Shown: piece by piece, positions 1,817 through 43,319 of the stretch
Position numbering within the stretch: the stretch's first letter is position 1
Layout of the letters: every line of letters begins with the position of its first letter
Assembly (NCBI GenBank): GCA_033286805.1
Contig: GCA_033286805.1_4727.1
Strand: one strand, 5' to 3'
Length of the DNA: 64,000 nucleotides
Origin: a phage
Translations under genes and position numbers: made by a program
Notes under the pieces: generated by a model
The model's database searches: none
Seen by the model: the letters and a program-made list of their open reading frames with translations, nothing else
Told to the model about the DNA's origin: nothing

Positions 1817-1848
1817 TCAAAAGATAACCGGATACCAACGTCATAAAA

Positions 1849-1881
1849 CCTTCCTCCAACCCAACAGGGAAGGAGGAAGGG
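1849..1881. terminator. GC-rich hairpin element CCTTCCTCC-AACCCAACAGGGA-AGGAGGAAGG
   Basis: 9-bp stem read directly; flanked by CATAAAA on the left; 10 nt downstream of the minus-strand stop at 1891. Confidence 0.6.
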
Positions 1882-1890
1882 ATATAGTGG

Positions 1891-4506: not shown

Positions 4507-4554
4507 GTGTTGTCTCCAGTAATGATTCAAAAGATAAACCTGAGCGGCATAGAA

Positions 4555-4586
4555 CCCTCTCCCAACCCGTCAGGGAAGGGAGAGGG
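4555..4586. terminator. hairpin element CCCTCTCCC-AACCCGTCAGGGAA-GGGAGAGGG
   Basis: Perfect 9-bp stem; flanks CATAGAA and AATATG; between the stop at 4609 and the start at 4506. Confidence 0.65.
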
Positions 4587-4608
4587 AATATGTCAGTTTA
4601 TTAACTGA

Positions 4609-5931
4609 TTACTGCTGTGCTGCGTCAGCCGGTTTCTCAGCCGCCTGGCCGCCGTACTCTTTCAGCATTTTAGCAACGCCATCCAGGACAGCGTTACCTG
4701 CCTGAACACCGTATTTCATCAGACCGGTCTGCGGGTTCACGTAGCAGGAACGTGCGTCTTTCAGCGCAGACAGTACAGCTTGAACACGCTGTTTTTCCTG
4801 AGCGGAAACTTCGCCTTTCTTAGACAGATCGGCTTCCATATCGTCACCGAATTTAACAGCGTCTTTGAAGCCCTGGGATTTCTTACCGATGTTGCCTTTC
4901 AGCGCCAGCAGTTTGTCAGCCAGTACTTCAACACCGCTAACCGCAGCAGCCAGCTGGTTCAGGGACAGGACGGTAGCTTCAACTTCTTTTGCTTCGCCGG
5001 TGCGTTCCCAGGTTACTTTACCATCGTTGGCTTTGAAACCCCAACCTGCCGGACCAGCAACGTCAGCAATCGCCGGAGCGTTCAGTTTATCAGCGTACTC
5101 GGTGTGAGATTTAGCAACAACGGTACCAACGAATTTATCAGCGCGATCGTCAGCAGCCTTCATTGCTTTCTCGAAGGTGTCAGCGATTTTGGTCGCGCCG
5201 GTAACCAGATCGTCGCCACCGATGTAGCCAGAAACGCCGCTACCCAGTTTAACTTTGGTATTTTTAGCAGCGCCTTTACGTTTGGCGATCATTTCTTTCA
5301 GTTTAGCGGCACGTGCTTTCAGCTTGGTTGCGCCGTCGAAGATACGATCCATGAACTTCACGAAGGTTTCCCAGGAAGTCTTCAGGAAGTTCTTGATGGT
5401 TGCCCACAGTTTCTGCCACCATTTTTGTTCTTCCAGGAAGATCATGTTGGTTGCATCGTAGCGGGAAGCGGAACCACCGAAGCTTTCGAAGGACGGCATG
5501 GTTTCCGGCAGTTTGAAACCGATAGTACCGCACAGACGTTTCAGATTACGCATGTGTTCCTGAGCGGTTTGTGCAGACATACCACCGTCTTTCAGGTAGC
5601 TTTCGGTTGCAACAACGGTTTCCGTCAGTTCATCCATGGCTTCGTCCATGGCTTCTGCGGTTTCGTCGTCTTTTGCAATTTCGATAACAACAGCATCAAC
5701 CTGCTCGATATCACCACGAACTTCGATAGCCAGTTCGGTTTCAGCTGCGGTATCTTCAGCGATTTCAGCACGTTCGGTCAGTTCAGCCACAACGGTTTCA
5801 TCCGCTGGTGCAGCATCAGCTGCCGGTTCTGCTTCAACGGTTGCCGCTGCATCCGGATCGATCTCAGCAGCCAGTTGAACCAGCTGTGCGTTAGATGGAT
5901 TTGCGACAAGACGATCAAAAATAGAAGGCAT
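4609..5931 (-). CDS. putative virion protein with acidic Ala/Glu/Asp-rich N-terminal region
   Basis: 440-aa ORF, ATG with AAAGGAAAC SD; the antisense 390-aa ORF is Cys/Phe-rich and was rejected. Confidence 0.7.
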   Translation of the reverse strand: MPSIFDRLVANPSNAQLVQLAAEIDPDAAATVEAEPAADAAPADETVVAELTERAEIAEDTAAETELAIEVRGDIEQVDAVVIEIAKDDETAEAMDEAMDELTETVVATESYLKDGGMSAQTAQEHMRNLKRLCGTIGFKLPETMPSFESFGGSASRYDATNMIFLEEQKWWQKLWATIKNFLKTSWETFVKFMDRIFDGATKLKARAAKLKEMIAKRKGAAKNTKVKLGSGVSGYIGGDDLVTGATKIADTFEKAMKAADDRADKFVGTVVAKSHTEYADKLNAPAIADVAGPAGWGFKANDGKVTWERTGEAKEVEATVLSLNQLAAAVSGVEVLADKLLALKGNIGKKSQGFKDAVKFGDDMEADLSKKGEVSAQEKQRVQAVLSALKDARSCYVNPQTGLMKYGVQAGNAVLDGVAKMLKEYGGQAAEKPADAAQQ

Positions 5932-5971
5932 AATTTGTTTCCTTTACAATAAATTGCACATTAGCTAATGC

Positions 5972-6004
5972 GGCTTAAGTGAACCATCAGCCCACTTAAA
6001 AGCC
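5972..6004. terminator. hairpin TTAAGTG...CACTTAA
   Basis: 7-bp inverted repeat overlapping the 3' end of the 5996-6526 gene. Confidence 0.35.
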
Positions 6005-6526
6005 CTTAAAACCCGGTGCCATAGGTTGCCCAAACACCGCATTCAAAGTACATATGATGTCCTGGATGCCATTGTCCCAATGGAGCCAAGTACGCACCAT
6101 CTCTTCGTCTGACAACGTGATATAACTCATAAGTTTACCGCTGCTTTCCAGACGTTGGTGTGAACTTAACGACTGACGATCTGACCAGTTATCAATCAGT
6201 TGACCAGCAATCTGAACGTTCGTGTCTCGTCTACCCGTGTGAATGAATCGTAGCGTATCACGGATAAACTCCAGACTGGTGAAGTTCAGATTTGGGTTAT
6301 GGCTGTTCATTTCCACCCAATCGGTGATGGGGTACATCAAACGATAAAGGGTAGAAAGAACCTGACGTTCATATTTCCAGTCATCGAGAGGAGTACCGTC
6401 GACCAGACGCTGATACAAACTAACAACGTCACGATCGTAGTTCTCCTGGCGTTTTACGCCGTTAACCGGAAAACCAAAGAACCCGGTACCGTATAATGTT
6501 AAAGGGACGTCACGAAGTGCATTCAT
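5996..6526 (-). CDS. hypothetical protein
   Basis: 176-aa ORF; ATGA start/stop overlap with the upstream gene. Confidence 0.6.
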   Translation of the reverse strand: MNALRDVPLTLYGTGFFGFPVNGVKRQENYDRDVVSLYQRLVDGTPLDDWKYERQVLSTLYRLMYPITDWVEMNSHNPNLNFTSLEFIRDTLRFIHTGRRDTNVQIAGQLIDNWSDRQSLSSHQRLESSGKLMSYITLSDEEMVRTWLHWDNGIQDIICTLNAVFGQPMAPGFKGF

Positions 6527-7464: not shown

Positions 7465-8571
7465 TTAACGAATCTGTGGGACGTTTCCGGTACGGAGCGC
7501 CTGGAGGATCGTCAGGAGATCGGAACCCGAAGTTGACGAACTGTTGGATTTTTCCAGTTGCTTGAAGCTTACGGTGGTCCCTTGATCCAAGCTGTGGAAA
7601 TAGAAGGTCACCATCTCTTCAGCTTCGTCGATGATGATCAACTGCATTGCGAGGGCTTCAGCCATGACTTTCTGACGTGTGGTATAGTCAGATAAACGAC
7701 GTCCGATCTTACGCTCGATGGCTTCCTGGTTAGCCTTAGAGATGATATAGGTGGAGGCGATGGCTCCAGAAGAAGGGATCTTTGTGCTCGCTGCAGCTTT
7801 TGCGGCATTGATGCGCGCAGCGTTAACAGCCTTACGGATACCCTCTTTATCCATGCGTGAGATTCGTTTATGTTCACGAACCAGATCGCTAAGCAGGATC
7901 ATATCGCTCCAGAAAGATAGCTCACCTGCCATCATGCGATGCCAACGTGCTCGCCAGGTGTTCTGTGGGCCACCGATCGCTAAAATCGATGCAAGCACTT
8001 CCGCCGGTGAACTTGCGATACGCATGCTGATGTTCAACGGCATTTTCATCGTTGCCTGACCATCGGTCAGCGTCACGGTTAAGAACTTGCCGGTAACCGC
8101 GTTCGCATCTTTGTTCAGCAATTCGATCGCAGCGTCGCTGGCTCCAACATCGGCGATATTTTTTTGTTTCCCCTGCAGGTTGAATCCTTTGTCATCAAGG
8201 AAAACAAGGCTTTTGCTATCCGCACTTTCCAGCGCTAATTTAACAGCCTTATCCATCAGGTTAGCGTTACGATTTGGGTTCACACGACCCAGCGTTTTAT
8301 CGACACTGATGTTACCCACCTGCATGATGGTATTCAACGCCAGTAAATAGAACCCGGTATACATGTTTTCAGCGGTGCGCATGCAGTTGCCTAACGCATT
8401 GCGTGCGTCGCTATAATACAACTCACGTTCAAAGATCAACGGCGCGATAACGCGTGAAGGTTGTGAGAGTTCAACCAGCGAACCTGGCTGGATAAGTTTA
8501 TTAACTTCGTAGACTTTAGCGATACCGGACGCAACAACGTTAACAGCGTCGGCAATTTCTGATGCTACCAT
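7465..8571 (-). CDS. hypothetical protein (possibly structural)
   Basis: 368-aa ORF, ATG with AAGGA SD. Confidence 0.65.
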   Translation of the reverse strand: MVASEIADAVNVVASGIAKVYEVNKLIQPGSLVELSQPSRVIAPLIFERELYYSDARNALGNCMRTAENMYTGFYLLALNTIMQVGNISVDKTLGRVNPNRNANLMDKAVKLALESADSKSLVFLDDKGFNLQGKQKNIADVGASDAAIELLNKDANAVTGKFLTVTLTDGQATMKMPLNISMRIASSPAEVLASILAIGGPQNTWRARWHRMMAGELSFWSDMILLSDLVREHKRISRMDKEGIRKAVNAARINAAKAAASTKIPSSGAIASTYIISKANQEAIERKIGRRLSDYTTRQKVMAEALAMQLIIIDEAEEMVTFYFHSLDQGTTVSFKQLEKSNSSSTSGSDLLTILQALRTGNVPQIR

Positions 8572-8605
8572 ATTGAAATCCTTATTTACAAATAAAGGAA
8601 AGAAA

Positions 8606-9811
8606 ATGTCTAATTACTACGACCAAGCTATTCAAACCATTCAGGAGAATAATGCGTCGTTAACACCCGAAGCTGTGGAGGCAGCGGGTAATGCGGTGTT
8701 ATTCACTGATTCGGATTGGGCAATAGCGCGGAAGAATATTCGTACCAGTGTCGGTCAAGGGACATACGAGGACAGTATCGCCAGACGGTATCGGAATGTC
8801 TCACCTATTCCGGGTAACAGTCCGATTCCGATTAACCGCGATCATGCCGGTATTACCTTCTTCACACGACCTAATTTACATCTTACCGACGCGAACTTAA
8901 AACGAGATCGACGTTTGTGGTCGTTACGCACGGATAACCCTAACAGTATTCAGGCTGTTGTCCGCGACTACTTGGACCCTGTGGGTGCCAGAAAGCGGAA
9001 CCATCGAGGACGTGCCATCGTCGATGAGCGCAATCCATTCATAAGTATACTGACGGACAACCTAACGGATATCAGTGGCTTCAACGACATGGAAATGCAG
9101 GTCTATCAGGGCAAACCGGGATTACGCCAAGAAACCGTTGTGATGGCTGACGGTTCGGTGGATATGTTTCAACCCTATAACCTGAACGCGACGTTCAAGA
9201 ACATCATGGGTAACCCCATCATGTTCCTTCATTATATTTGGTTGATTTACATCGCGGGCGTGCATAATGGCGAACTGACGCCAAGCCCTCAGGCCATCAT
9301 TGATAATGAAATGGATTACTGGACAAGATGTTATCGTATCATCTTGGATCCGACTGGGATGTATGTTCGTTATATCTTCGCACCGACCGCGATGTTTCCT
9401 GTCGGACTACCGATTGGTAATATGGCTAACTACAGCATCGATAAACCCTTCACGCAAGATAACGAACGTATCACTATTCCATATCAGGCGGTTGGTAACA
9501 ACGCATTCGATGAGATTCTGAAGGATGAATTCAATCGACTTGTCCTGATGTTCTATTACGGTGAGAACGATACCCGTACGTTCCTTGAAGATGAGGAGCT
9601 GGTACCTATCTCACCCTACGAGCGTCGAATCATGTCGTATCGTGTCGATATGTATCCATTTATTCATCCGTTGACCTCAGAGCTTCTTTGGTTCGTACCC
9701 GCTGATGATTACAACGAATTCTATCTGGATCTTGAGCCGTCGGCGTTACCACCGGATACGTTCAGTCGCGACCTTGTCCGTACCACCATTCCGCAAAATT
9801 ACGAGGGATAA
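8606..9811 (+). CDS. hypothetical protein
   Basis: ORF track start 8573 lacks an SD; ATG at 8606 follows AAAGGAAAG. Confidence 0.65.
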   Translation: MSNYYDQAIQTIQENNASLTPEAVEAAGNAVLFTDSDWAIARKNIRTSVGQGTYEDSIARRYRNVSPIPGNSPIPINRDHAGITFFTRPNLHLTDANLKRDRRLWSLRTDNPNSIQAVVRDYLDPVGARKRNHRGRAIVDERNPFISILTDNLTDISGFNDMEMQVYQGKPGLRQETVVMADGSVDMFQPYNLNATFKNIMGNPIMFLHYIWLIYIAGVHNGELTPSPQAIIDNEMDYWTRCYRIILDPTGMYVRYIFAPTAMFPVGLPIGNMANYSIDKPFTQDNERITIPYQAVGNNAFDEILKDEFNRLVLMFYYGENDTRTFLEDEELVPISPYERRIMSYRVDMYPFIHPLTSELLWFVPADDYNEFYLDLEPSALPPDTFSRDLVRTTIPQNYEG

Positions 9812-12808: not shown

Positions 12809-12830
12809 AACAAAAATAGCATGAGCATAA

Positions 12831-12862
12831 CCCTCCTCCAACCCGTCAGGGAAGGAGGAGGG
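12831..12862. terminator. hairpin element CCCTCCTCC-AACCCGTCAGGGAA-GGAGGAGGG (bidirectional)
   Basis: Perfect stem between convergent genes (plus gene ends 12808, minus gene ends 12872). Confidence 0.7.
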
Positions 12863-12871
12863 AATATGTTG

Positions 12872-33939: not shown

Positions 33940-33955
33940 CGCAACGGTAACATAA

Positions 33956-33987
33956 CCCTCTCCCAACCCAGCAGGGAAGGGAGAGGG
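33956..33987. terminator. hairpin element CCCTCTCCC-AACCCAGCAGGGAA-GGGAGAGGG (bidirectional)
   Basis: Perfect stem between convergent genes (33939 and 34005); flanks CATAA and CTTATG. Confidence 0.7.
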
Positions 33988-34004
33988 CTTATGCTGTTAT
34001 GCTA

Positions 34005-34388: not shown

Positions 34389-34958
34389 TCAACGATTCTT
34401 CATCACTTTACCCAGGCTTTCGATATTATCCCAAAAGCGATTTTTACTTGGCGCATCGCCAACGATAACCGACATCAAATCGCGACGTTCGCGACTGATG
34501 ATGCCCTGTGATTTCCAGATCACCATCGTCCAGCAAGCTGCCAGAACGAACAGATGGTTAATGCTCGGTTTGGTTTGCGCGATGAACGCAAGCCATGCCC
34601 AGATACCGGTGTATACTATCGTCACTAAAAAGAGCGAGATTGTTGCAACGACAACAACGAAGTTTTGGACAGCGGGTTGATTAGCGTTATCATGAATAGC
34701 GGTAAGATCAGGAAGGTTACCTTCAACTGAACTCGTTTCATCGATTTCCAATTCTTCGATTTCTTTTCGTGTGTCGGGAGCTAATCCGGCATCATCAAGA
34801 TGCTTTTTTAACCGCTGTATACTTAATCGTTGACCGACAGGAATGTTGATGTTGTCGTAACTATTAAGCGCATCAACCAGGGAGCGTCCATCAACGAGAA
34901 CCAAGCTCGCGGTACCCATCGTTTGCGGTTTTATTTTGTAAAGGTCTTTTACTTTCAT
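34389..34958 (-). CDS. hypothetical membrane protein (C-terminal TM helices)
   Basis: Hydrophobic VVVVATISLFLVTIVYTGIWAWLAFI; GGAGGTGG SD. Confidence 0.6.
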   Translation of the reverse strand: MKVKDLYKIKPQTMGTASLVLVDGRSLVDALNSYDNINIPVGQRLSIQRLKKHLDDAGLAPDTRKEIEELEIDETSSVEGNLPDLTAIHDNANQPAVQNFVVVVATISLFLVTIVYTGIWAWLAFIAQTKPSINHLFVLAACWTMVIWKSQGIISRERRDLMSVIVGDAPSKNRFWDNIESLGKVMKNR

Positions 34959-34979: not shown

Positions 34980-37592
34980 TTAAGCGTCCGGCGTAAAATC
35001 AAAAGGAATGTCCGTACGAATGATATCGTAACGTTTTCCTAGGAAATAAAACTCTTCGGGAACCTGACCAGGAATAATGCTATCGCCGATGAACTGCGGA
35101 TACGCCCAGATGTACTGAGTGAGTCCTTCGAACATATCCAGGTTATTTGCATGGTTACCCATGATACGTTTCCAGAGTTCGCGTTTATACGGTGTTTTAA
35201 CATCGAATCCATAAAGCGGTGCAAGATCTTCACCAGGAACAAATCCCAGGTAATAATGGATCTGACTAACCGGGAAACCAAGCGTATCTCGCGGAATGGT
35301 GATCGCTTGCTCTGCCTTGGTGACATGCGTCTCAATAATCCAGTCGTAGCACTCCGAATAGAACCGGTCGAATTTCTCTGGGTTATACCACGCTTTGGGA
35401 AGATTGAGTTTCTCCGTGAACGCGTTCGACATGATCGTCGGCAAGAACGGAAGAACACCGGTTTTGATCTGCGTGTATTTCGATTTTACCCGATTAACCA
35501 AATTCCAGCAACTGTATCCTAACTGTTCGTTACAAAACTCAACGTAGAGATCGTAGTCACCACCGGATAATGGGTTGTTAATATCACCGATGTCTGCGGC
35601 ATATTTGTTGGGATATCGGTTATTGAAAGCCAGTTTGGTTTGGTAATCGTAGATACACGGTTTGTTGTTCGCTGTATTGATCCACCACCAGGGTTCACCT
35701 ACTTGCACACAAATGTCCTGGACATGGGGGTAGATGATATCAGCAAACGCGGTTAACACATCCCCTAACCACGCCATCGCCTGTTGGTTACATGGAGACA
35801 GCAACCAGGACGGTGGTGTGTATCCGGTTGCTGCGATGTTTCCTTCCCAATCCTGCTGCGCCCACTCGAACGGGCAGGCTGTACTCATCAATTCGTAACT
35901 TAAACTGATGGTGACAGAGAAATGGTGTTTTGCGGCGTATGCAGCGAAAGCTTCATGCCATGCGATACAGGGTGGATTTAATACATCCGTGGTGTTCACC
36001 AGTAACTTACCTGCACTTGGCGTCCAGACAGTATCGTAGAAATGCGACATTCCAACATAGTGCACTAATTCATCCTGATATCCAGCATAAACCAGGTTTT
36101 CAAATACACGCTCTGGCGTGATGTTGTAATGGTCATCATAAGCGGTTATCGCACGAAGTTCGTGTGGCGTACAATGATGGCGATTAACCGTCATTTCCTG
36201 ATACACCCCATCGATAGGAAGAATCTCGAGGGTTAAACCAAGATCGATCGGTGTTTCCAGATAGGTCGTTTCTGTAGCACCTTCTTTATAATGTCGAGAA
36301 CTCATGCTGAACATCAACGACGTTACCGATTCGAGTTCGATAGGCTCGTCAGCATAGAACCCCGCCATTGCGTCATTGAAATCGATCGTTACGATTGCGC
36401 TTCTACCGTCTTCAGAGACATCGGTGGCGTATCGGGTTAATGAGATATACTGACGGCTATCGTCTTTGTGTACGACGGTTAAAACCGGCGGGTTTTCGGT
36501 ATCTGCAAAGTTACGCTGATCGCCAGTAAACGTGATCTTCGCTTTAAAGATCAAACCGAATAACGACGTCATGGGATCATACGCAATACAACCGTGATCC
36601 AGCGTATCCGTTGTCCGCCATTCTATCCCGACCAACCCGTTAGCGGTATGGCATCGCATATACGCATTAAGGACCATGTCTTCACTGACAACCGCGAAGT
36701 TCTCTGTTGACTGACCGTTGATAATCCAATACATCGGTTGCCAGAGGTTACGCGTACCTTTTGCGTAGCGGTAGGTTGGCGCGCCTTTAGGGTTGCCGTT
36801 ATTAAGATGGAATACAGCAGTACCTTGATAATGGTCGTTCGTATTAATCGGAACACTGTAAGCATCACCGAGATCCGTACGTTCCACCTTCTTGACTGTT
36901 GCGTTTTCAAATAACCCACGCAGCGCGGGTAAACCGATATCATCAGGCGCGTTTTCTCGACGAATCGCATCCGCGATGCGGTGGGCTAGGGCGGGGTAAA
37001 TGGTCTCACCCTGTTGTAGGTTTGCAAGACCTACAAAGCGATCGGGAGCGATGCCAGCAATCAATAACTCAACATCACCCTTCGTTCTATCGTCATTAAG
37101 ATATTTCAGTCCGGTAAGGTCAAGATGCTGAATAAGCGACAACAGGTTGTATTTACGGTTTTCAACAGTTAGTACAAGATCGCCTGCCCAAACCAAACTT
37201 CCCTCATCCGCTGTTACTTTAACGGATTGTCGGCCTGTGGTAGACGTTGTTGTCGTTTTATTTAATTGTCCTTGTAGGAAGTCGGTTGCGAGGTCAAAGG
37301 CAATACCGTAACGGTCAGCGACCGCTTGCATGATTTCACGTAACTGGGTATCTTCTTCAATGATAATCTTGACAGGTATTCCCAAGAACGCTTTAGCGAG
37401 GTCTCGTTTAACCAACGAGACGAATACGGATTTGTAGTATCGGCTTCCATCTTTCCCTTTAAAAAGAATGGAGGTTGTTTCGGGTGCCGATAGAACACGT
37501 GCAAATACAACATCGTCGGAAGTAAGAGAAAGTCCGTTTTTCTCGTTGACCAATCTTAGTATTTCATTTTGCGCGGTTTCATGTAACTTCAT
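34980..37592 (-). CDS. putative tail fibre/tailspike-like protein (870 aa) with shared N-terminal domain
   Basis: N-terminal ~110 aa (RDLAKAFLGIPVKI) paralogous to the 43326-43853 and 47669-48499 products. Confidence 0.55.
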   Translation of the reverse strand: MKLHETAQNEILRLVNEKNGLSLTSDDVVFARVLSAPETTSILFKGKDGSRYYKSVFVSLVKRDLAKAFLGIPVKIIIEEDTQLREIMQAVADRYGIAFDLATDFLQGQLNKTTTTSTTGRQSVKVTADEGSLVWAGDLVLTVENRKYNLLSLIQHLDLTGLKYLNDDRTKGDVELLIAGIAPDRFVGLANLQQGETIYPALAHRIADAIRRENAPDDIGLPALRGLFENATVKKVERTDLGDAYSVPINTNDHYQGTAVFHLNNGNPKGAPTYRYAKGTRNLWQPMYWIINGQSTENFAVVSEDMVLNAYMRCHTANGLVGIEWRTTDTLDHGCIAYDPMTSLFGLIFKAKITFTGDQRNFADTENPPVLTVVHKDDSRQYISLTRYATDVSEDGRSAIVTIDFNDAMAGFYADEPIELESVTSLMFSMSSRHYKEGATETTYLETPIDLGLTLEILPIDGVYQEMTVNRHHCTPHELRAITAYDDHYNITPERVFENLVYAGYQDELVHYVGMSHFYDTVWTPSAGKLLVNTTDVLNPPCIAWHEAFAAYAAKHHFSVTISLSYELMSTACPFEWAQQDWEGNIAATGYTPPSWLLSPCNQQAMAWLGDVLTAFADIIYPHVQDICVQVGEPWWWINTANNKPCIYDYQTKLAFNNRYPNKYAADIGDINNPLSGGDYDLYVEFCNEQLGYSCWNLVNRVKSKYTQIKTGVLPFLPTIMSNAFTEKLNLPKAWYNPEKFDRFYSECYDWIIETHVTKAEQAITIPRDTLGFPVSQIHYYLGFVPGEDLAPLYGFDVKTPYKRELWKRIMGNHANNLDMFEGLTQYIWAYPQFIGDSIIPGQVPEEFYFLGKRYDIIRTDIPFDFTPDA

Positions 37593-37614
37593 TAAAAACC
37601 TCAGCCCTTTAGAA

Positions 37615-38256
37615 TTAAATGTACTGCTTACCGCCCACGAAGGAAGTTAACCAGTTCCCGCTGACGAGTTGTGATACCCAGCCTGGAACGGCTCTACCAT
37701 TCTGGCTCATGATGTTACCACACCAACCAGGGAATCCGGGACGGATGTAATAGAAAGTTAAATTGTAGAGATGGCAATTCCATACCGCAACGTTATGTTT
37801 ACCAGAAACCGCTTTAAAGACAAACGCGACAGGTAACGGAGACGATAACAATTCGGTCACAGGGACGGCTGACCAGTTCGCATTCGCGTTCCATGGCTGC
37901 CAGGTATGGCTACGCGAGTCACCGTTAACGTTACCGTTGCTACCGCGTCCGCCCGCGTTCCACCATAGCGACGGACTCATGTTCTTAAGTGAGGTAAATT
38001 GCTGTGGTGGAATATTCGGAATGATAACAGGGTTGGTACCTTGTCCGTGTTTCTTTTCTTTTGCGTTCACATACCCGCTTATCGATTCCAGGTATTTGGT
38101 ACCAGGATAATTGTTCTGGACTTGTGTCGCAATATCACGAACGTCGAACGTCCAGCAGATCATGGTGTTGTAGTAAGCGTCGGTGTTATCGTGCCATGAG
38201 TTACCATCTTGTAAACGTGCGCCGCTATTCGGTGTTTTATCTGTGCTTATAGCCAT
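37615..38256 (-). CDS. hypothetical protein, possibly tail-fibre associated
   Basis: 213-aa ORF with Trp/Gly/Asn-rich segments, next to the fibre module. Confidence 0.5.
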   Translation of the reverse strand: MAISTDKTPNSGARLQDGNSWHDNTDAYYNTMICWTFDVRDIATQVQNNYPGTKYLESISGYVNAKEKKHGQGTNPVIIPNIPPQQFTSLKNMSPSLWWNAGGRGSNGNVNGDSRSHTWQPWNANANWSAVPVTELLSSPLPVAFVFKAVSGKHNVAVWNCHLYNLTFYYIRPGFPGWCGNIMSQNGRAVPGWVSQLVSGNWLTSFVGGKQYI

Positions 38257-38438
38257 GGTGTTGTCCTATACGTTGGTGGTTGAGGTGGCGGATATCGGAT
38301 GCGTGTTGTCGTCAGGTAATACATACAGAAACGCCCACTGATAAAACAGTAGCTTCTTTTAAATGGAATTTAGATATCGCGTATTTCTACCTCGTTTCTA
38401 TTCTCAAAAAGGAAATTTCATACGATGACGCCATAGCA

Positions 38439-38468
38439 GCTCCTCCTTCCCTGACGGGTTGGAGGAGC
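38439..38468. terminator. hairpin element in inverted orientation (GCTCCTCC-TTCCCTGACGGGTT-GGAGGAGC)
   Basis: Same stem and loop as the 12831 element, reverse-complemented; 9 nt past the lipoprotein gene stop. Confidence 0.65.
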
Positions 38469-38476
38469 ATACTTAA

Positions 38477-38983
38477 TTACTTACTGATAACCTCAACGGA
38501 GTTGGGATCAGCGATCAATGCACGGTCGGTAGAACAATTGAAGAAGACCGTACCAACACCATCACCGTTCGAGTTCAGGGTTGAACTTGCGTAAGACAGG
38601 GTTGGTTTATTCATGCGGTAGAAGCGTTCGCTGGTTGCGGTATTGAACCCCAGGTCAACGTAGTCTTTCACCGTGGTATACAACTGGGTGGACTCGAAAA
38701 CGGTTACCGGAGAGTCGACGGTAAATTGACTGCCTTCGTCCACAACCAGAACTTTATCGTTCCAGATTTCAGTGGTTGAGAACTTCGGTTTCCAATGTTC
38801 GAATTCCTGGGTTGCACCCCAGCAAGAATACACAGCGAGATTGCTGTTCTTCTCGACAGGTTTCAACCCCACCAGTTGTGTCAGGTCTTTATCCAGGTTC
38901 GGTAAACCTTCCAGCGTAGCACACCCACCCAGAGAAAGCACCATTAGCATACCAAGAACGATCGCGCAAAGTTTCTTTGTCAT
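38477..38983 (-). CDS. putative lipoprotein
   Basis: Signal peptide with lipobox LSLGG-C (MTKKLCAIVLGMLMVLSLGGCAT); GAGGAAA SD. Confidence 0.65.
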   Translation of the reverse strand: MTKKLCAIVLGMLMVLSLGGCATLEGLPNLDKDLTQLVGLKPVEKNSNLAVYSCWGATQEFEHWKPKFSTTEIWNDKVLVVDEGSQFTVDSPVTVFESTQLYTTVKDYVDLGFNTATSERFYRMNKPTLSYASSTLNSNGDGVGTVFFNCSTDRALIADPNSVEVISK

Positions 38984-39024
38984 CGGATTTCCTCATGTGT
39001 TAACGGGAGTGATTTCCATAGTAA

Positions 39025-39441
39025 TTACACAGTTGTAGGAAATTCCGGCCAATCGATATTTGGTGCAGCATCGGTATCGACAGCAGTCACCGCATCAGTG
39101 TAATCCAAAACAGCATTAAGTCGGGTCGTTTCTTCCTGAGTCAGTTTTCGCCCAGCCCGTAATTTTAACTGAATAAGATCGATGGAAGCCAGCGCAGAAT
39201 CAATCAAAGATTGTTTTATCTGTTCTGCCTCGGCGACGAGATCTTCGTGTTGCCGCTCGGGTTCCGGAGGTGCGGTAAACTCACCATTTGAGTATGACCA
39301 ACCTATTCCAGGTGACACAGCCTCCTTATCGTCGATATGAACCAACTGCTGATTGTCGAATATATCGAGCTCTGCTTCACCGTCGTAAACAATCGTGTTT
39401 ACTACCACCCCATTTTCAATAACAGCGTATGATGTACTCAT
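39025..39441 (-). CDS. tail fibre assembly protein (Tfa-like chaperone)
   Basis: C-terminal NIDWPEFP resembles the Tfa C-terminus; TAATG overlap with the fibre gene; start moved to ATG 39441 with GAGGAG SD. Confidence 0.7.
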   Translation of the reverse strand: MSTSYAVIENGVVVNTIVYDGEAELDIFDNQQLVHIDDKEAVSPGIGWSYSNGEFTAPPEPERQHEDLVAEAEQIKQSLIDSALASIDLIQLKLRAGRKLTQEETTRLNAVLDYTDAVTAVDTDAAPNIDWPEFPTTV

Positions 39442-42400
39442 TACATAAACTCCTCGATGATGCAAATCCCATTAGCACCACGCCCACCAGGCTTAGCGGT
39501 TCCTGAGTAAGAGTTATCGTAAGCACCGCCACCACCCGAACCAGGCGCGAGGCCGTTATGGGCGGTGCCAACACCAGCGCGACCGCCACCGCCCCAATAT
39601 GACGCACCCCCACATCCACCGACGGCAAGAGTACCGGCTTGTCCATCGTTACCGTCTCCGCCCGGAATGCGTATATCCCCGGTAGTAGGTACGCCCCCAT
39701 AGCCACCGCCAGTGTTTGTGACAGTTGTTTTTCCTGCGCCTTGCCCGCCGGGAGCAGTTAGCAGGGATGCAAATTTACTATCCCCACCCCCGTTCCCAGA
39801 CGTCGCCCCAGAGCCACCGGAACCACCAGAACCAATTACAACAGAATAACTAGCAGCTGTTACCGTTATAACCGAAATTACTGTTCCGCCAGCGCCTCCC
39901 CCAGCGCCAAAAAACGTTTCGCTGTTGGAATAAGCCTGACAGCCACCGCCGCCACCGCCGCCACCGGTTATTGTTACTCTAATCCGTTTTGTTCCTTGTG
40001 TTGGGGTGTACGTCCCTGACGATGTGAAAACACGCATGTTCAGTAAACGTCCGACATATCCGCTAGAATCGGCTAAACCAAGATCTTTAGCTGCTAACGT
40101 GATATTAGCTGTACCGTCAAACGGTTTACCGTTAATCGTGCGCGCGGTCTGCAACTTCGTCGCCGTTGCTGCGTTTCCTGATGTGTTCTGGTTCCCCGCA
40201 GCGTTAACACCCGGCAGATTGATGTTCGCACTACCGTCGAAAGATACCCCACCAATGGTGCGGGCTGTTTTCAGTTTTGTCGCCGTGGCAGCATTACCGG
40301 TTGTGTCTTGGTTACCGGTGGTGTTTACCCCAGGCAGGTTGATATTTGCCGTTCCGTTAAATGAAACACCGCCAATCGTCCTTGCTGTTTGAAGCCTCGT
40401 CGCGGTAGCGGCGTTACCCGTCGTGTTCTGGTTTCCGGTTGTGTTCACACCAGGGATACTATCTTTCGAGGTGTAGATCTGTGCCCATTCTGACCAGTTC
40501 GAATCGGCCGCATCACGACGTGAACGTAGGTAAGCTGGAGCGTATGCACCTGAGGTACCTGACCACCCAATGAGGATTTCACCTTCACCGACCGATGAAG
40601 CCCCTTTAAGATGAATGACGTTACCATAAGCGGTGGGATACCCGTTATTGTACGCTTCATACATCTGGATGCCCGCATTGCTGCCCTGAGCCGTGTTAGC
40701 TAATGCCGTAACACGACCTTTGGAGGCGAGAGCGGTAATACTGAAGCTAATATCCTTAGTACCGTCAAAGGCGACCCCATTAATCTTCCGTGCTGTTTGG
40801 AGTTTCGTGGCGGTAGCCGCATTACCAGAGGTACTCTGATTACCTGCTTTGTTCACGCCAGGCAAATCAATGTTGGCTGTTCCATCAAAGGACACGCCCC
40901 CTATGGTTCTCGCTGTCTGGAGTTTTGTTGCTGAGCCAGCGTTTCCGGAAGTGCTTTGATTACCTGCCGCGTTGACACCTGGTAGGTTAATGCTAGCAGA
41001 GCCATCAAAAGAAACTCCACCGATCGTGATTGGTGTTTTCAATTTCGTGGCTGTCGCAGCATTACCCGTCGTATTCTGATTGCCAGCCGCATTAACGCCT
41101 GGTAATGCGATATCGGTCGTACCATCGAACGCGACACCACCGATTTTACGGGCAGTCTGTAGCTTGGTCGCTGTAGCCGCGTTGCCGCTGGTATTTTGCG
41201 TGCCCGCTTTATTTACGCCTGGTAAATCAATGTTCGCAGTACCATCAAAAGAAACACCCCCGATGGTTCTCGCGGTCTCAAGTTTGGTTGCGCTTCCTGC
41301 GTTTCCGCTGGTGTCTTGGTTTCCCGCTGCATCAACACCCGGTAGACTGATGCTGGCCGAACCATCGAAACTCACACCACCGATCGTAACAGCGGTTTTC
41401 AATTTCGTAGCGGTTGCAGCGTTCCCCGTGGTATTTTGGTTACCTGTCGCATTCACACCCGGTAATGCAATATCCGCTGTTCCGTCAAAGGCAACGCCAC
41501 CGATTCTACGTGCAGTTTGTAGCTTGGTTGCACTAGCAGCGTTACCGCTGGTATTCTGGGTGCCAGCTTTGTTAACACCAGGGAGATCGATGTTAGCAGA
41601 ACCATCGAAGCTAACGCCACCTATCGTTCTTGCAGTAGCAAGTTTAGCTGCTGTAGCAGCGGCGTTACCGACTTTTAACCATTCGCCCCATGGACCATCC
41701 TGGCCGTTCCATGATGCCGTTAAACTACGTACGTAAATATTGCCGGTACATACAGTGTAACGTTGCGTTCCACCGAATTGCCCGGTTGGGAGCACTTCAA
41801 TGTAACCTGCGGCATTTGCTTCAGGGAAATTGTGGGCGACGTCCGCGTTCGTTGATACTGGTTTAGACCAAATACCCACAGACGCTTCAACCGGACCGTA
41901 CGTATTCAGATTTGCGTCGGTGGGAAGTTGTCCTCGAAAACGCTGGAATTGTGTTGCCGATAACCCCAACGTTGTTTGCATGCTTTCAATGCTGGATTGC
42001 TGAAGTAACGTCCGTGCTGTCGACGTAATCACGGTAAGCGCAACTTTATTAACACCGGTGAAATACGGGAGTTTGTCTGCTGATGTCGCTAAACCTGAAA
42101 AGGCGGTCAGTAATGCGTTAAGGGGCTGCTTCCCAGCTAACGCATTTGTTACCGTCGTTGCGAAATTAGGATCACTTCCTATAGCTCGAGCCAGCTTATT
42201 AAGCGTATTTAGCGTCGCTGGTGACGAGTCGATCAGCGCCGTGATCGCACGCATCACAAATTCCGTGTTGGCTATCTGTCGACTGCTATTGTTAACTGCT
42301 GCGGTGGGCGCTGCTGGCGTACCAGTGAATACAGGGCTATTAAGATCCGCCTTGAGGGCGATGAGACGTTTAAGCGCTTCAACATCAACTTTCAGGTTTT

Positions 42401-43319
42401 CCCATCCGATGAGAGAACCACCACTGTTGGTATGATAACGGTTGTACCAGAAGTCACCGTTAACGCCAAAAAAGAATATACATTTCTCTTCGTTTTGTGG
42501 ACCGGAACTATTTCGTGATGAGTCGATATATTTGATTTCAATAAGACCGCTAAACACCACTCCTGGGATTATATTGTTGTCTCCAGCTGATTGTGATACT
42601 TGGTACATCCCCGGGGTTGCAGCTTTAACCCACGTTAAGAATTCTGTTACTCCAGCGTTACCGCTGAAACGCTTAACGTCGGTAAGTATCGCCCCATAAC
42701 CGAACATACCGGGTAAAGCAACTCGCCCATCGGTACGGTCACGAATATCTGTTGCAACAACAGGCAATTGTTTACGAACGGCATTAACCGCTTTAGGCGT
42801 GGCCGATTTTGTCTCGTCGTCGCTATCGGTTTCATTACTTAGAATAGTTAAACCGCGTGTAGTAGTAGTTGCATCAGGAAGAAATGCGTTATCCAACACC
42901 TTAAGCTGTACTGCACTCGTATTACTAACAACGACATGCACTTGACAGTTAAGAACGCTGGTTGCGCCTTCGGCAGGCGTAGGCTTATATCTTTCTGGTG
43001 CACTGCAGACGGCAATCAGAACACCTTGGTCGTCATACAGACCGATCTCACGTACCCAGAACCCACCTTGACCAGCAGGAATAATACCCTCAACGATAAT
43101 CCTAGTTGTGCTATCACCATCCGCATGGATATTAGAAACTTCCCCACGATAAACTTCGTGAACAAGCGCTGTTTGGCTGGCGGTAGGGGTTGGGATCGAG
43201 CCGTTACCATCACCAACGGCAAAGTGTGTGATTTTTAGTTTCTCACCGTCGGGAAGTAACGCAGCGGTGATACGTTCTGCTCCTTTATCGGTAACTACCG
43301 TTATATATGCTGTACTCAT
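39441..43319 (-). CDS. tail fibre protein (1292 aa) with tandem repeats and glycine-rich C-terminus
   Basis: N-terminal KITHFAVGDGNGSIPTPTASQTALV (P2 H / side-tail-fibre-like); more than 10 repeats ending GNAATATKL; Gly-rich C-terminus; Tfa gene immediately downstream. Confidence 0.8.
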   Translation of the reverse strand: MSTAYITVVTDKGAERITAALLPDGEKLKITHFAVGDGNGSIPTPTASQTALVHEVYRGEVSNIHADGDSTTRIIVEGIIPAGQGGFWVREIGLYDDQGVLIAVCSAPERYKPTPAEGATSVLNCQVHVVVSNTSAVQLKVLDNAFLPDATTTTRGLTILSNETDSDDETKSATPKAVNAVRKQLPVVATDIRDRTDGRVALPGMFGYGAILTDVKRFSGNAGVTEFLTWVKAATPGMYQVSQSAGDNNIIPGVVFSGLIEIKYIDSSRNSSGPQNEEKCIFFFGVNGDFWYNRYHTNSGGSLIGWENLKVDVEALKRLIALKADLNSPVFTGTPAAPTAAVNNSSRQIANTEFVMRAITALIDSSPATLNTLNKLARAIGSDPNFATTVTNALAGKQPLNALLTAFSGLATSADKLPYFTGVNKVALTVITSTARTLLQQSSIESMQTTLGLSATQFQRFRGQLPTDANLNTYGPVEASVGIWSKPVSTNADVAHNFPEANAAGYIEVLPTGQFGGTQRYTVCTGNIYVRSLTASWNGQDGPWGEWLKVGNAAATAAKLATARTIGGVSFDGSANIDLPGVNKAGTQNTSGNAASATKLQTARRIGGVAFDGTADIALPGVNATGNQNTTGNAATATKLKTAVTIGGVSFDGSASISLPGVDAAGNQDTSGNAGSATKLETARTIGGVSFDGTANIDLPGVNKAGTQNTSGNAATATKLQTARKIGGVAFDGTTDIALPGVNAAGNQNTTGNAATATKLKTPITIGGVSFDGSASINLPGVNAAGNQSTSGNAGSATKLQTARTIGGVSFDGTANIDLPGVNKAGNQSTSGNAATATKLQTARKINGVAFDGTKDISFSITALASKGRVTALANTAQGSNAGIQMYEAYNNGYPTAYGNVIHLKGASSVGEGEILIGWSGTSGAYAPAYLRSRRDAADSNWSEWAQIYTSKDSIPGVNTTGNQNTTGNAATATRLQTARTIGGVSFNGTANINLPGVNTTGNQDTTGNAATATKLKTARTIGGVSFDGSANINLPGVNAAGNQNTSGNAATATKLQTARTINGKPFDGTANITLAAKDLGLADSSGYVGRLLNMRVFTSSGTYTPTQGTKRIRVTITGGGGGGGGCQAYSNSETFFGAGGGAGGTVISVITVTAASYSVVIGSGGSGGSGATSGNGGGDSKFASLLTAPGGQGAGKTTVTNTGGGYGGVPTTGDIRIPGGDGNDGQAGTLAVGGCGGASYWGGGGRAGVGTAHNGLAPGSGGGGAYDNSYSGTAKPGGRGANGICIIEEFM
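40094..41654 (-). repeat. in-frame tandem coding repeats (~42 aa / ~126 bp units) within the tail fibre gene
   Basis: Repeated TARTIGGVSFDGSANIDLPGVNxxGNQNTSGNAATATKLQ units in two blocks; mirrored by antisense repeat ORFs. Boundaries approximate. Confidence 0.7.

Follow-up and report, generated by a model that had tools for sequence, protein, structure and literature searches.

A predicted outer-membrane lipoprotein gene beside the tail-fibre genes of a Goslar-like jumbo phage, and the terminator-type hairpin that follows it

The phage lipoproteins closest in kind to the one considered here are Llp of T5, Cor of T1 and phi80, and Rtp45, which belong to the receptor-blocking type: a protein that plugs a specific outer-membrane receptor and thereby gives superinfection exclusion. 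The mature proteins of Llp and Cor are about 60 residues long, and Llp is also reported to protect progeny from debris. Spanins such as Rz1 of lambda and gp11 of T1 are a second point of comparison, and a third is provided by the periplasmic hydrolase inhibitors, represented by Spackle of T4 and by MliC, PliC and PhiA. Here we describe a lipoprotein gene at positions 38477-38983 (minus strand) in a 64,000-nt stretch of phage DNA (NCBI GenBank assembly GCA_033286805.1, contig GCA_033286805.1_4727.1), together with the 220-bp gap that follows it; “the window” refers to the whole of this stretch. Over positions 37500-39500 the window has 95% nucleotide identity to the Escherichia phage vB_EcoM_Goslar, a nucleus-forming jumbo member of the Chimalliviridae with a genome of 237 kb, and the gene is the ortholog of the one encoding Goslar gp88. 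We use the term gp88 for the protein in both phages.

Like Llp, Cor and Rtp45, gp88 is a phage-encoded lipobox protein, predicted to lie in the inner leaflet of the outer membrane and encoded beside host-recognition genes. It differs from Llp and Cor in that its mature part has 148 residues against their roughly 60, in being unrelated to them, in its apparently late expression, and in its independence from the neighbouring fibre; moreover, the known receptor of Goslar is the core of lipopolysaccharide (LPS) and not a TonB-dependent transporter. Its likeness to the spanins is that of a late outer-membrane phage lipoprotein, the sole candidate of its genome, whose gene lies near an endolysin gene in SPN3US-like relatives. 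Here the differences are the lack of an i-spanin partner and of a C-terminal anchor, and an exported part that is modelled as a folded, probably disulfide-stapled barrel and not as a short proline-rich or extended segment. Compared with MliC, PliC, PhiA and Spackle, the gp88 barrel is larger (∼10 strands in the model), and the resemblance is no better than that to unrelated barrels. On the evidence set out below, it is very likely that gp88 is a real exported outer-membrane lipoprotein, made late and in abundance.

The sequence-only reading of this DNA had proposed a 168-residue open reading frame (ORF) with a clear lipobox directly 3' of the tail-fibre and Tfa genes, and both the frame itself and the Pfam matches bear this out. 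The frame (N-terminus MTKKLCAIVLGMLMVLSLGGCATLEG / MTKKLCAIVLGMLMVLSLGGC) agrees with PROSITE rule PS51257, which calls for K or R in the first seven residues, an uncharged hydrophobic core, and a lipobox of the form [LVI..][ASTVI..][AGS]-C with the cysteine at position 15-35. In gp88, K3 and K4 lie within the first seven residues, positions 11-16 are uncharged, and S17-L18, G19 and G20 are followed by C21, so that a signal core of 14 uncharged residues ends at a cysteine in position 21 (MTKKLCAIVLGMLMVLSLGG followed by C21). A hydrophobic N-terminal stretch ending in a lipobox is present in all 28 homologs. The residue after the cysteine (+2), alanine in gp88, is A, K, S, T or Q among the 28 homologs, V in the SPN3US homolog, and Asp in none; under the +2 rule of E. 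coli, in which outer-membrane sorting goes with the lack of Asp at this position, sorting by the Lol system to the outer membrane is predicted. The mature protein has a pI of ∼4.6 and a hydrophilic C-terminus (...FFNCSTDRALIADPNSVEVISK). The amino acid identity to Goslar gp088 is 98.8%, and the codons that differ, 19 of them synonymous and 2 non-synonymous, show that the gene is under purifying selection. A six-frame scan of the 237-kb Goslar genome with a PS51257-like pattern gave gp088 as the sole convincing lipobox ORF, and it was likewise the sole convincing one among the annotated genes.

The family to which gp88 belongs is small and is found only in jumbo phages. A sequence search followed by a profile search of 5.8 billion proteins returned 27 proteins, and those located on long contigs come from contigs of jumbo-phage size (up to ∼250 kb). 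An exhaustive hidden Markov model scan of 1.84 billion cluster representatives gave 17 matches, about 10 of them true members and the weak ones repeats or scrambled sequences. In IMG/VR there are 14 family loci, all on contigs of 107-248 kb, and no family member turned up when 185,579 bacterial and archaeal species were scanned, each represented by one genome. The phages concerned are Goslar-like phages, Salmonella SPN3US-like phages (where the homolog is gp159), and Erwinia Machinavirus, Wellingtonvirus and Asesino-like phages. Family matches from named phages are 26-35% identical and have the lipobox and two cysteines in common. The Goslar genome has no lipoprotein candidate besides gp88, whose family is conserved across the group's E. 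coli, Salmonella and Erwinia members. The best library match is to phrog_9559 of PHROGs, a group of unknown function (E = 3e-20). The lipoprotein has no match in Pfam, NCBIfam or PADLOC, and none of the 28 family members matches a Pfam entry at E ≤ 1.

In the 28-sequence alignment, Gly20 and Cys21 of the lipobox are invariant, as are Cys54 and Cys150 (in the motifs Y-x-C and F-x-C, respectively) and residues P66, G84, R120, Y122, S134, G140 and G142. An AlphaFold2 model built on this alignment has a mean predicted local distance difference test (pLDDT) value of 76, rising to 85-93 over residues 41-150, and depicts an all-beta barrel of ∼10 strands, ahead of which lie the signal helix and a disordered tether. 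Cys54 lies in strand 50-62 and Cys150 in strand 142-151, the last strand of the barrel. Paired conserved cysteines in an exported domain suggest a periplasmic disulfide, and in the model Cys54 and Cys150 would probably form one that staples the barrel. Fold comparison gave scores of 8.0 for Cap15, 7.5 for OmpW, 7.3 for Brucella PhiA, 6.8 for NHBA, 6.3 for TbpB, 6.0 for fHbp and 5.7 for PliC. A Foldseek search of the PDB had no match at E ≤ 0.001 (best 5.5e-03), a profile search of PDB sequences gave only noise (best E 0.086), and a structure search of BFVD returned members of the family together with a few further phage lipoproteins that carry no annotation. With no library, sequence or specific structural match, homology assigns the protein no function. 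Part of this was already on record: UniProt carries the label “Lipoprotein” for the entries of Erwinia phages Kwan, Huxley and Asesino, and gp88 itself has been reported as an abundant virion-associated protein. What is new is the fold, the late timing and the lack of coupling to the fibre in an outer-membrane lipoprotein beside host-recognition genes, as well as the link between the lipoprotein nature of gp88 and the proteomic result, which had not been made previously.

Timing comes from published RNA sequencing of Goslar at 30 min. HOV27_gp088 has counts of 358, 426 and 425 in the controls and 6, 11 and 3 upon knockdown of ChmA (chimallin), with log2 changes of -4.5, -3.6 and -6.0 (a 12- to 65-fold drop), and gp086-gp090 behave alike. 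Since the authors found that the knockdown transcriptome matches early infection, this drop places gp88 in the nucleus-dependent, late class. Read density is ∼0.8 reads/nt for gp088, compared with 0.3 for gp089, 0.4 for gp090 and 0.5 for gp087, that is, 2-2.5 times that of the two upstream genes and 1.6 times that of the downstream gene, an excess that fits a promoter of its own combined with partial termination at the hairpin behind it. The 41-nt spacer between the Tfa gene and the downstream lipoprotein gene holds a promoter-like TATG element, and leaders resembling this spacer occur at two related loci, L008 and L009 (TATGGGAACTCCCC / TATGGGAACTTCCC). Late promoters of phiKZ have the sequence TATG, with G as +1 (PMC4666361). 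A scan for sigma-70 promoters found zero sites, as expected for phages that do not use the host RNA polymerase. In both L008 (7975-8000 and 8573-8600) and L009 (7925-7950 and 8515-8542), which come from Goslar-like phages at a greater distance, GC-rich hairpins with TTTTATG/TTCTATG stand on both sides of the lipoprotein gene, which suggests that there it is an insulated single-gene transcription unit.

Abundance is documented by a preprint on the Goslar virion, based on cryo-electron microscopy (cryoEM) and mass spectrometry (MS), in which gp88 (YP_009820773.1) was detected at 77.84% coverage with 20 peptides and 209 spectra and was estimated at ∼740 copies per virion-equivalent (range 491-1158), against ∼19 for gp087 and ∼580 for the DUF7941 protein gp22 (10.64898/2026.04.21.720040). 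In the same work gp88 is among ten abundant proteins of unknown function that lie outside the atomic model; its lipoprotein signal is unmentioned, and the preparation also holds chimallin and PhuZ according to the authors (10.64898/2026.04.21.720040). In Table S4 of that preprint, peptides of host OmpA (NP_415477.1) and OmpF (NP_415449.1) appear in the virion sample at intensities comparable to those of gp88; one OmpA peptide (area 879,000, 23 spectra) exceeds the best gp88 peptide among those beginning with A to D (529,000, 8 spectra). SPN3US provides a second preparation: its homolog gp159 is absent from the full list of proteins in virions purified on caesium chloride (CsCl), and the adjacent gp160 is among the most abundant. 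As Goslar binds LPS, outer-membrane fragments should stick to its virions, and the virion abundance is most simply read as that of a late, abundantly made outer-membrane lipoprotein which membrane debris brings with it. Recognising the signal of gp88 shifts how the proteomic result is read, carry-over of outer membrane being simpler than a packaged protein, and the presence of OmpA and OmpF in a “purified virion” sample also bears on the reading of the other abundant unmodelled proteins there.

The MS data also touch on processing of the precursor, of which LCAIILGMLMVLSLGGCATLEGLPNLDK would be a peptide. No peptide containing ATLEGLPN, the mature N-terminus, occurs among those peptides of the table that begin with A to D, which is where the N-terminal Cys peptide, if free or carbamidomethylated, would have appeared. 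Coverage is 130 of 167 residues, and the 37 unseen ones can be made up either from the N-terminal 31, in keeping with their loss, plus FYR and MNK, or from MK, K, FYR and the 31-residue MNKPTL...STDR; with two solutions to the arithmetic, we do not accept the coverage as proof that the signal peptide is removed.

The relation of gp88 to the neighbouring fibre was examined across relatives. Identity between the window and Goslar is 98.8% for the lipoprotein, 98.1% for gp087 and 98.6% for gp086, compared with 91% for Tfa and 84%, with insertions and deletions, for the fibre. At locus L007 the lipoprotein is 86% identical, while the fibre is alike only over the N-terminal 183 residues and one internal segment, with an unrelated tip, and the chaperone is a DUF4376 protein in place of Caudo_TAP. 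Comparison of L008 with L009 gives 89% identity for the lipoproteins and 75-86% for backbone genes, but no relation between the upstream fibres (1375 aa and 604 aa). The lipoprotein is conserved while the fibres are swapped, which makes its gene a backbone gene within a hypervariable cluster.

What does hold across the family is proximity to host-recognition genes. At the loci of the Goslar clade the lipoprotein gene lies among DUF7941 and fibre genes, and in the SPN3US/Erwinia clade (loci L002-L005 and L018-L028) it is head-to-head with gp160-like DUF7941 genes, present as one to three tandem paralogs, at 15 of 15 loci. The divergent intergenic region between the two is ∼110-270 bp long, at about 5250-6430 in locus coordinates. 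By one proposal, DUF7941 proteins make up a filament cloud on the peripheral baseplate that makes the first contact with the host (10.64898/2026.04.21.720040). The other flank in this clade varies, being either a block of endolysin, DUF1353 and M15-like genes or a run of structural paralogs.

We tentatively favour a late role of gp88 in modifying the host envelope, by which readsorption of progeny would be reduced; we consider this possible, and short of an even chance. In this scheme Sec would export gp88, Cys21 would be acylated, and Lol would deliver the protein to the outer membrane of the host, on whose periplasmic face it would display a beta-barrel of ∼110-125 residues, probably stapled by Cys54 and Cys150. 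Its gene would be a late transcription unit of its own, with the TATG promoter-like element at its 5' side and the terminator hairpin 8 nt past its stop codon, from which the protein would be made in large amounts. From inside, gp88 might alter the envelope of the producing cell such that sister virions, with their sticky DUF7941 proteins and fibres, are not wasted on that cell or its debris. At lysis the protein would be found in outer-membrane fragments, which is the simplest reason for its co-purification with virions. The scheme otherwise resembles the progeny protection reported for Llp, which is plausible for gp88 too, and departs from it in that gp88 would act on a conserved envelope step or target, and not on the receptor that the variable fibre next to it uses. 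For this family of nucleus-forming jumbo phages, whose intensive study has revealed almost nothing of their envelope effects and lysis, gp88 offers a single testable candidate for envelope-level exclusion, progeny protection or outer-membrane disruption.

Several points weigh against such a role. A lipoprotein of the inner leaflet cannot directly mask the LPS core, which is the sole receptor found for Goslar. Late expression fits lysis functions equally well, and a lysis role is further favoured by gp88 being the only convincing lipobox ORF in Goslar, with no spanin pair evident. Finally, the abundance in virion preparations could be true virion association.

The strongest competitor is a factor of lysis and release, in which gp88 would be the outer-membrane component of the last lysis step, as a functional o-spanin analogue or a weakener of the outer membrane acting once the cell wall is cleared by the endolysins. 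Its nucleus-dependent late expression and high abundance would suit this, as would its standing as the sole convincing lipobox ORF in the six frames of Goslar, where no Rz/Rz1-like pair was seen. Gene order adds that a GH108 endolysin gene lies one to four genes from the lipoprotein gene at 15 of 15 SPN3US/Erwinia-clade loci, and that in L008 a two-transmembrane protein with a charged C-terminus (gp085-like) is encoded directly 3' of the lipoprotein gene. The protein itself looks little like a spanin: the absence of a transmembrane segment at its C-terminus sets it apart from the u-spanins, and its mature part is a folded 148-residue barrel with only 6 prolines, unlike the short proline-rich o-spanins. 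Nor is a partner at hand, for the neighbouring Tfa and 213-aa gp087 have no N-terminal transmembrane segment, there is no adjacent or embedded type-II partner, and no embedded same-strand lipobox ORF of at least 40 aa was found elsewhere in Goslar. The distance from gp088 to the endolysin genes of Goslar is ∼80 kb for gp024 and ∼12 kb for gp098, and the gp085-like proteins occur in phages other than those with the lipoprotein. On balance we regard a lysis role as unlikely, though it deserves to be kept in view.

Three observations belong beside the gene order just described. In SPN3US (L002), two genes separate the lipoprotein gene from the GH108 endolysin gene, namely gp158 (7522-8037), which has a weak Peptidase_M15_3-like match (E = 0.008, below the Pfam cut-off), and gp157 (8047-8688), a DUF1353 protein annotated as “tail assembly chaperone”. 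In the Erwinia relatives a 37-38-aa ORF with a single transmembrane domain adjoins the endolysin gene. The region between the SPN3US lipoprotein gene and the endolysin gene may be an unrecognised lysis cluster. As for gp085, encoded in the window at 34389-34958 (minus strand), it is 189 aa long and has a holin-like topology, with a soluble domain of ∼105 aa at the N-terminus, two transmembrane segments and a C-terminus of high charge. Its homologs are present in PCH45, PhiEaH1, Moabite and Klebsiella jumbo phages, chimalliviruses that do not have the lipoprotein family. An obligate pairing of the lipoprotein with the two-transmembrane gp085 was considered and rejected, as the two families occur in different phages.

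Rather less probable is that gp88 is a periplasmic hydrolase inhibitor in the manner of T4 Spackle or MliC/PliC/PhiA, blocking either the tail-tip lysin (gp204) of sister particles or the phage's own endolysin. MliC is also an outer-membrane lipoprotein barrel, with Y-x-C near its start and N-C near its end, a conserved tail-tip target would explain why gp88 diverges with the backbone genes and not with the fibres, and a high copy number would suit a stoichiometric inhibitor. The structural likeness is unspecific, however, for the unrelated barrels Cap15 and OmpW score as well as or better than the inhibitors, and no Foldseek match passes the threshold given above. The Pfam MliC family (PF09864) matches neither the lipoprotein nor other family members, the inhibitor loop motifs are not conserved, and hhalign, with an MliC query, aligns only the signal peptide and Y-x-C (47% probability). 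Late expression would also be poor timing for blocking superinfection.

An improbable alternative holds that gp88 is a true virion component, located for instance on the DUF7941 filament cloud or the peripheral baseplate, and that its N-terminal segment is not an export signal. The estimated copy number falls in the same range as that of the DUF7941 protein gp22, the gene is always next to DUF7941 genes, and it is co-regulated with the fibre genes. A conserved Sec signal and lipobox, with Gly-Cys invariant in 28 sequences, would be hard to explain in a particle assembled in the cytoplasm, and gp88 is not in the cryoEM model; in addition, the preparation contains OmpA, OmpF, chimallin and PhuZ, and CsCl-purified virions of SPN3US have abundant gp160 but lack gp159. 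A variant to which we give an equally small chance is that gp88 is processed by the host as a lipoprotein and is then carried in hundreds of copies on released virions, through contact with the DUF7941 filament cloud or the fibres at lysis. It could then be a removable cap that keeps the adhesins off debris or a lipid-anchored adaptor for the next infection, and would represent a virion-associated lipoprotein of bacterial type in a tailed phage, encoded beside the filaments it regulates.

The sequence-only reading had likened gp88 to T5 Llp, as a blocker of the phage receptor, and had taken detection in the virion, as opposed to the host envelope, as a sign against that role. The first half of the comparison, a position beside receptor-binding genes, stands, as the link to host-recognition genes is conserved; the second half, receptor blocking in the manner of Llp, is poorly supported. 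The protein has no relation in sequence or fold to known exclusion lipoproteins, it does not co-vary with the adjacent fibre (86% identity in L007 and 89% between L008 and L009, where the tips are unrelated), and it is expressed late and in dependence on the nucleus, unlike the early exclusion genes. As to detection in the virion, that sign is partly given: gp88 is abundant in the Goslar preparation, in which OmpA and OmpF also occur, and the SPN3US virion proteome lacks gp159.

In its specific form, this idea is that an Llp/Cor-type lipoprotein plugs a particular outer-membrane protein used as receptor by the neighbouring fibre, and thereby gives superinfection exclusion. The placement of an outer-membrane lipoprotein directly 3' of the fibre and Tfa genes is what suggests it. 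Goslar, however, is listed as using LPS (GluII) as its receptor in genome-wide screens described in a 2026 preprint, and the Goslar rows considered here from random-barcode transposon sequencing (RB-TnSeq) are galU, hldE, waaC, waaF, waaG, waaP, waaQ, waaY, rfaI and rfaH, with no outer-membrane protein among them, so that resistance, as far as those rows go, matches LPS-core genes throughout. This receptor test is not absolute, because essential proteins such as LptD and BamA are invisible to transposon screens, and the Rtp lipoprotein is reported to bind the periplasmic face of LptD. The mature protein, besides, is ∼2.5 times the size of Llp or Cor, it is expressed late and not early, and it keeps 86-89% identity while the adjacent fibre tip and chaperone are swapped. 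We consider a plug matched to the receptor of the neighbouring fibre to be poorly supported and less probable than any of the alternatives above.

The second subject of this work is the 220-bp gap between the lipoprotein gene and the next minus-strand gene. As had been noted from the sequence, it holds a hairpin and no ORF, and in our analysis there is no minus-strand ORF of at least 40 aa. Plus-strand ORFs that run across the gap (52 and 104 aa) are antisense and span a stretch that differs by 43 nt in Goslar, a length that is not a multiple of 3. The gap probably consists of a terminator hairpin together with the promoter and leader of the next gene, and is not a separate RNA gene. Its four parts (Table 1) differ in conservation. 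The first 93 nt, comprising the hairpin and the block past it, are 100% identical to Goslar, and positions 31-70, part hairpin and part block, are 95% identical to L007, where the conserved block ends ∼15 nt before the start of the gp087 homolog. The middle is replaced in Goslar by a shorter, unrelated stretch. At the far end, positions 172-216 of the gap are 98% identical to Goslar and 88% identical to a stretch in L007 that lies beyond its gp087-like gene. In relatives, the gaps after the lipoprotein gene are about 80-115 bp long.

Of the two TATG motifs in the block past the hairpin, the second is the probable promoter and leader start of gp087. The first, directly past the hairpin, was not accepted as a proven promoter, as CATA...TATG flanks are also found at convergent junctions, which need no promoter; it may belong to the terminator element itself.

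The hairpin is a member of a terminator-type family. The full 30-nt pattern, allowing up to 3 mismatches, has 2 matches in the window and none in 100 shuffles, and the core CCAACCC-N4-GGGAAGG is present in 5 copies in the window (near 1856, 4562, 12838, 33963 and 38462) and in 14 in Goslar, compared with 0-1 in 20 shuffles. All copies are intergenic and lie just past stop codons, about half of them at convergent gene junctions, and for two the Goslar record gives a terminator annotation. Covariation is seen in the outer stem (CCCTCCT/AGGAGGG, CCCTCTC/GAGAGGG, CCTTCCT/AGGAAGG, CCATCCTC/GAGGATGA and GCTCCT/AGGAGC), while neither the inner CCC/GGG pairs nor the A.A mismatches vary, which suggests recognition of a specific sequence; the copy at 38439-38468 matches the core exactly. 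Related hairpins are present in L008 and L009 and a diverged form in L007. The family provides a practical marker of transcript ends in Goslar-like genomes. Members are often flanked by CATAA...AATATG. In Goslar, 12 of the 14 copies have one genome orientation, though most genes are on the other strand, and the copy behind the lipoprotein gene is one of the two in the opposite orientation.

The earlier suggestion of a small RNA in the gap did not fare well, as there is no Rfam match at E ≤ 1 and the hairpin is of the terminator type. Two features could be read in favour of a regulatory small RNA or a micro-peptide: the predicted folding of the gap is better than that of shuffles (z = -2.8), and position 38434 is the start of a 15-codon ORF (MASSYEISFLRIETR), with AGGAGG lying in the hairpin's 3' arm. 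The fold is built around the terminator hairpin, however, and the micro-ORF has 9 codons in L007 and is unrelated in L008 and L009, with its ATG forming part of the TATG that recurs after hairpins; given also the replacement of the middle in Goslar and the short gaps of the relatives, we find either product very improbable, the least probable of all the alternatives discussed here. The micro-ORF was rejected as a gene candidate, neither its length nor its sequence being conserved. A 13-nt stretch at 38336-38348, within the window-specific middle of the gap, is 92% complementary to codons 4-8 of gp087 (38233-38245) and could pair in the leader; we make no claim for it, as by our estimate chance alone would give ∼0.2 such pairs in this region.

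Table 1. Positions of the features described in the text; window coordinates unless another record is named.
Feature	Position	Strand	Remarks
Tail-fibre gene	39441..43319	-	1292 aa; ortholog of Goslar gp090
Tfa gene (Caudo_TAP fibre chaperone)	39025..39465	-	Pfam E = 7.7e-21; Goslar gp089
Spacer upstream of the lipoprotein gene	38984..39024	-	41 nt; TATG at 39017-39020, then GAAATCACTCCC (promoter-like)
Shine-Dalgarno sequence GAGGA	38990-38994	-	6 nt 5' of the lipoprotein ATG
Lipoprotein gene	38477..38983	-	168 aa, ATG start; ortholog of Goslar gp88 (YP_009820773)
Signal peptide, residues 1-20	38924..38983	-	n-region MTKK; hydrophobic core LCAIVLGMLMVLSL
Lipobox L18-G19-G20-C21	38921..38932	-	C21 is the predicted acylated N-terminus; +2 is Ala
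Cys54 codon, motif Y-x-C	38822..38824	-	invariant column; strand 50-62 of model
Cys150 codon, motif F-x-C	38534..38536	-	invariant column; strand 142-151 (last barrel strand) of model
Gap	38257..38476	-	220 bp; reaches the ATG of the next minus-strand gene
Terminator-type hairpin GCTCCTCCAACCCGTCAGGGAAGGAGGAGC	38439..38468	-	8-bp outer stem, A.A/A.A internal loop, 3 G-C pairs, GUCA loop; 8 nt past stop
Block past hairpin	38384..38438	-	TATG at 38432-38435 and 38419-38422; identical to Goslar, conserved in L007
Variable middle of gap	38306..38383	-	shorter unrelated stretch in Goslar (gap 177 bp vs 220 bp)
3' end of gap, leader of 213-aa gene	38257..38305	-	AGGA at 38264-38267; last 49 nt conserved
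Next downstream gene	37615..38256	-	213 aa, unknown function; Goslar gp087
DUF7941 and NCTSP TIM-barrel protein gene	34980..37592	-	870 aa; Goslar gp086; Pfam
Hairpin copies in the window	1846-1883, 4552-4589, 12828-12865, 33953-33990, 38439-38468
Hairpin copies in Goslar (NC_048170)	4156, 15785, 27753, 48114, 49783, 61016, 63722, 71997, 93452, 97908, 134592, 174274, 224391, 237270

Among the neighbouring genes, the 870-aa equivalent of Goslar gp086 is a candidate for host recognition, and the Tfa gene overlaps the end of the tail-fibre gene. The fibre is 84% identical to Goslar gp090 (1292 vs 1324 aa), compared with 98-99% for the flanking genes. It contains many tandem copies of a ∼40-aa repeat (TARTIGGVSFDG..NI.LPGVN..GNQ.TSGNAA.ATKL), and its C-terminal part is glycine-rich.

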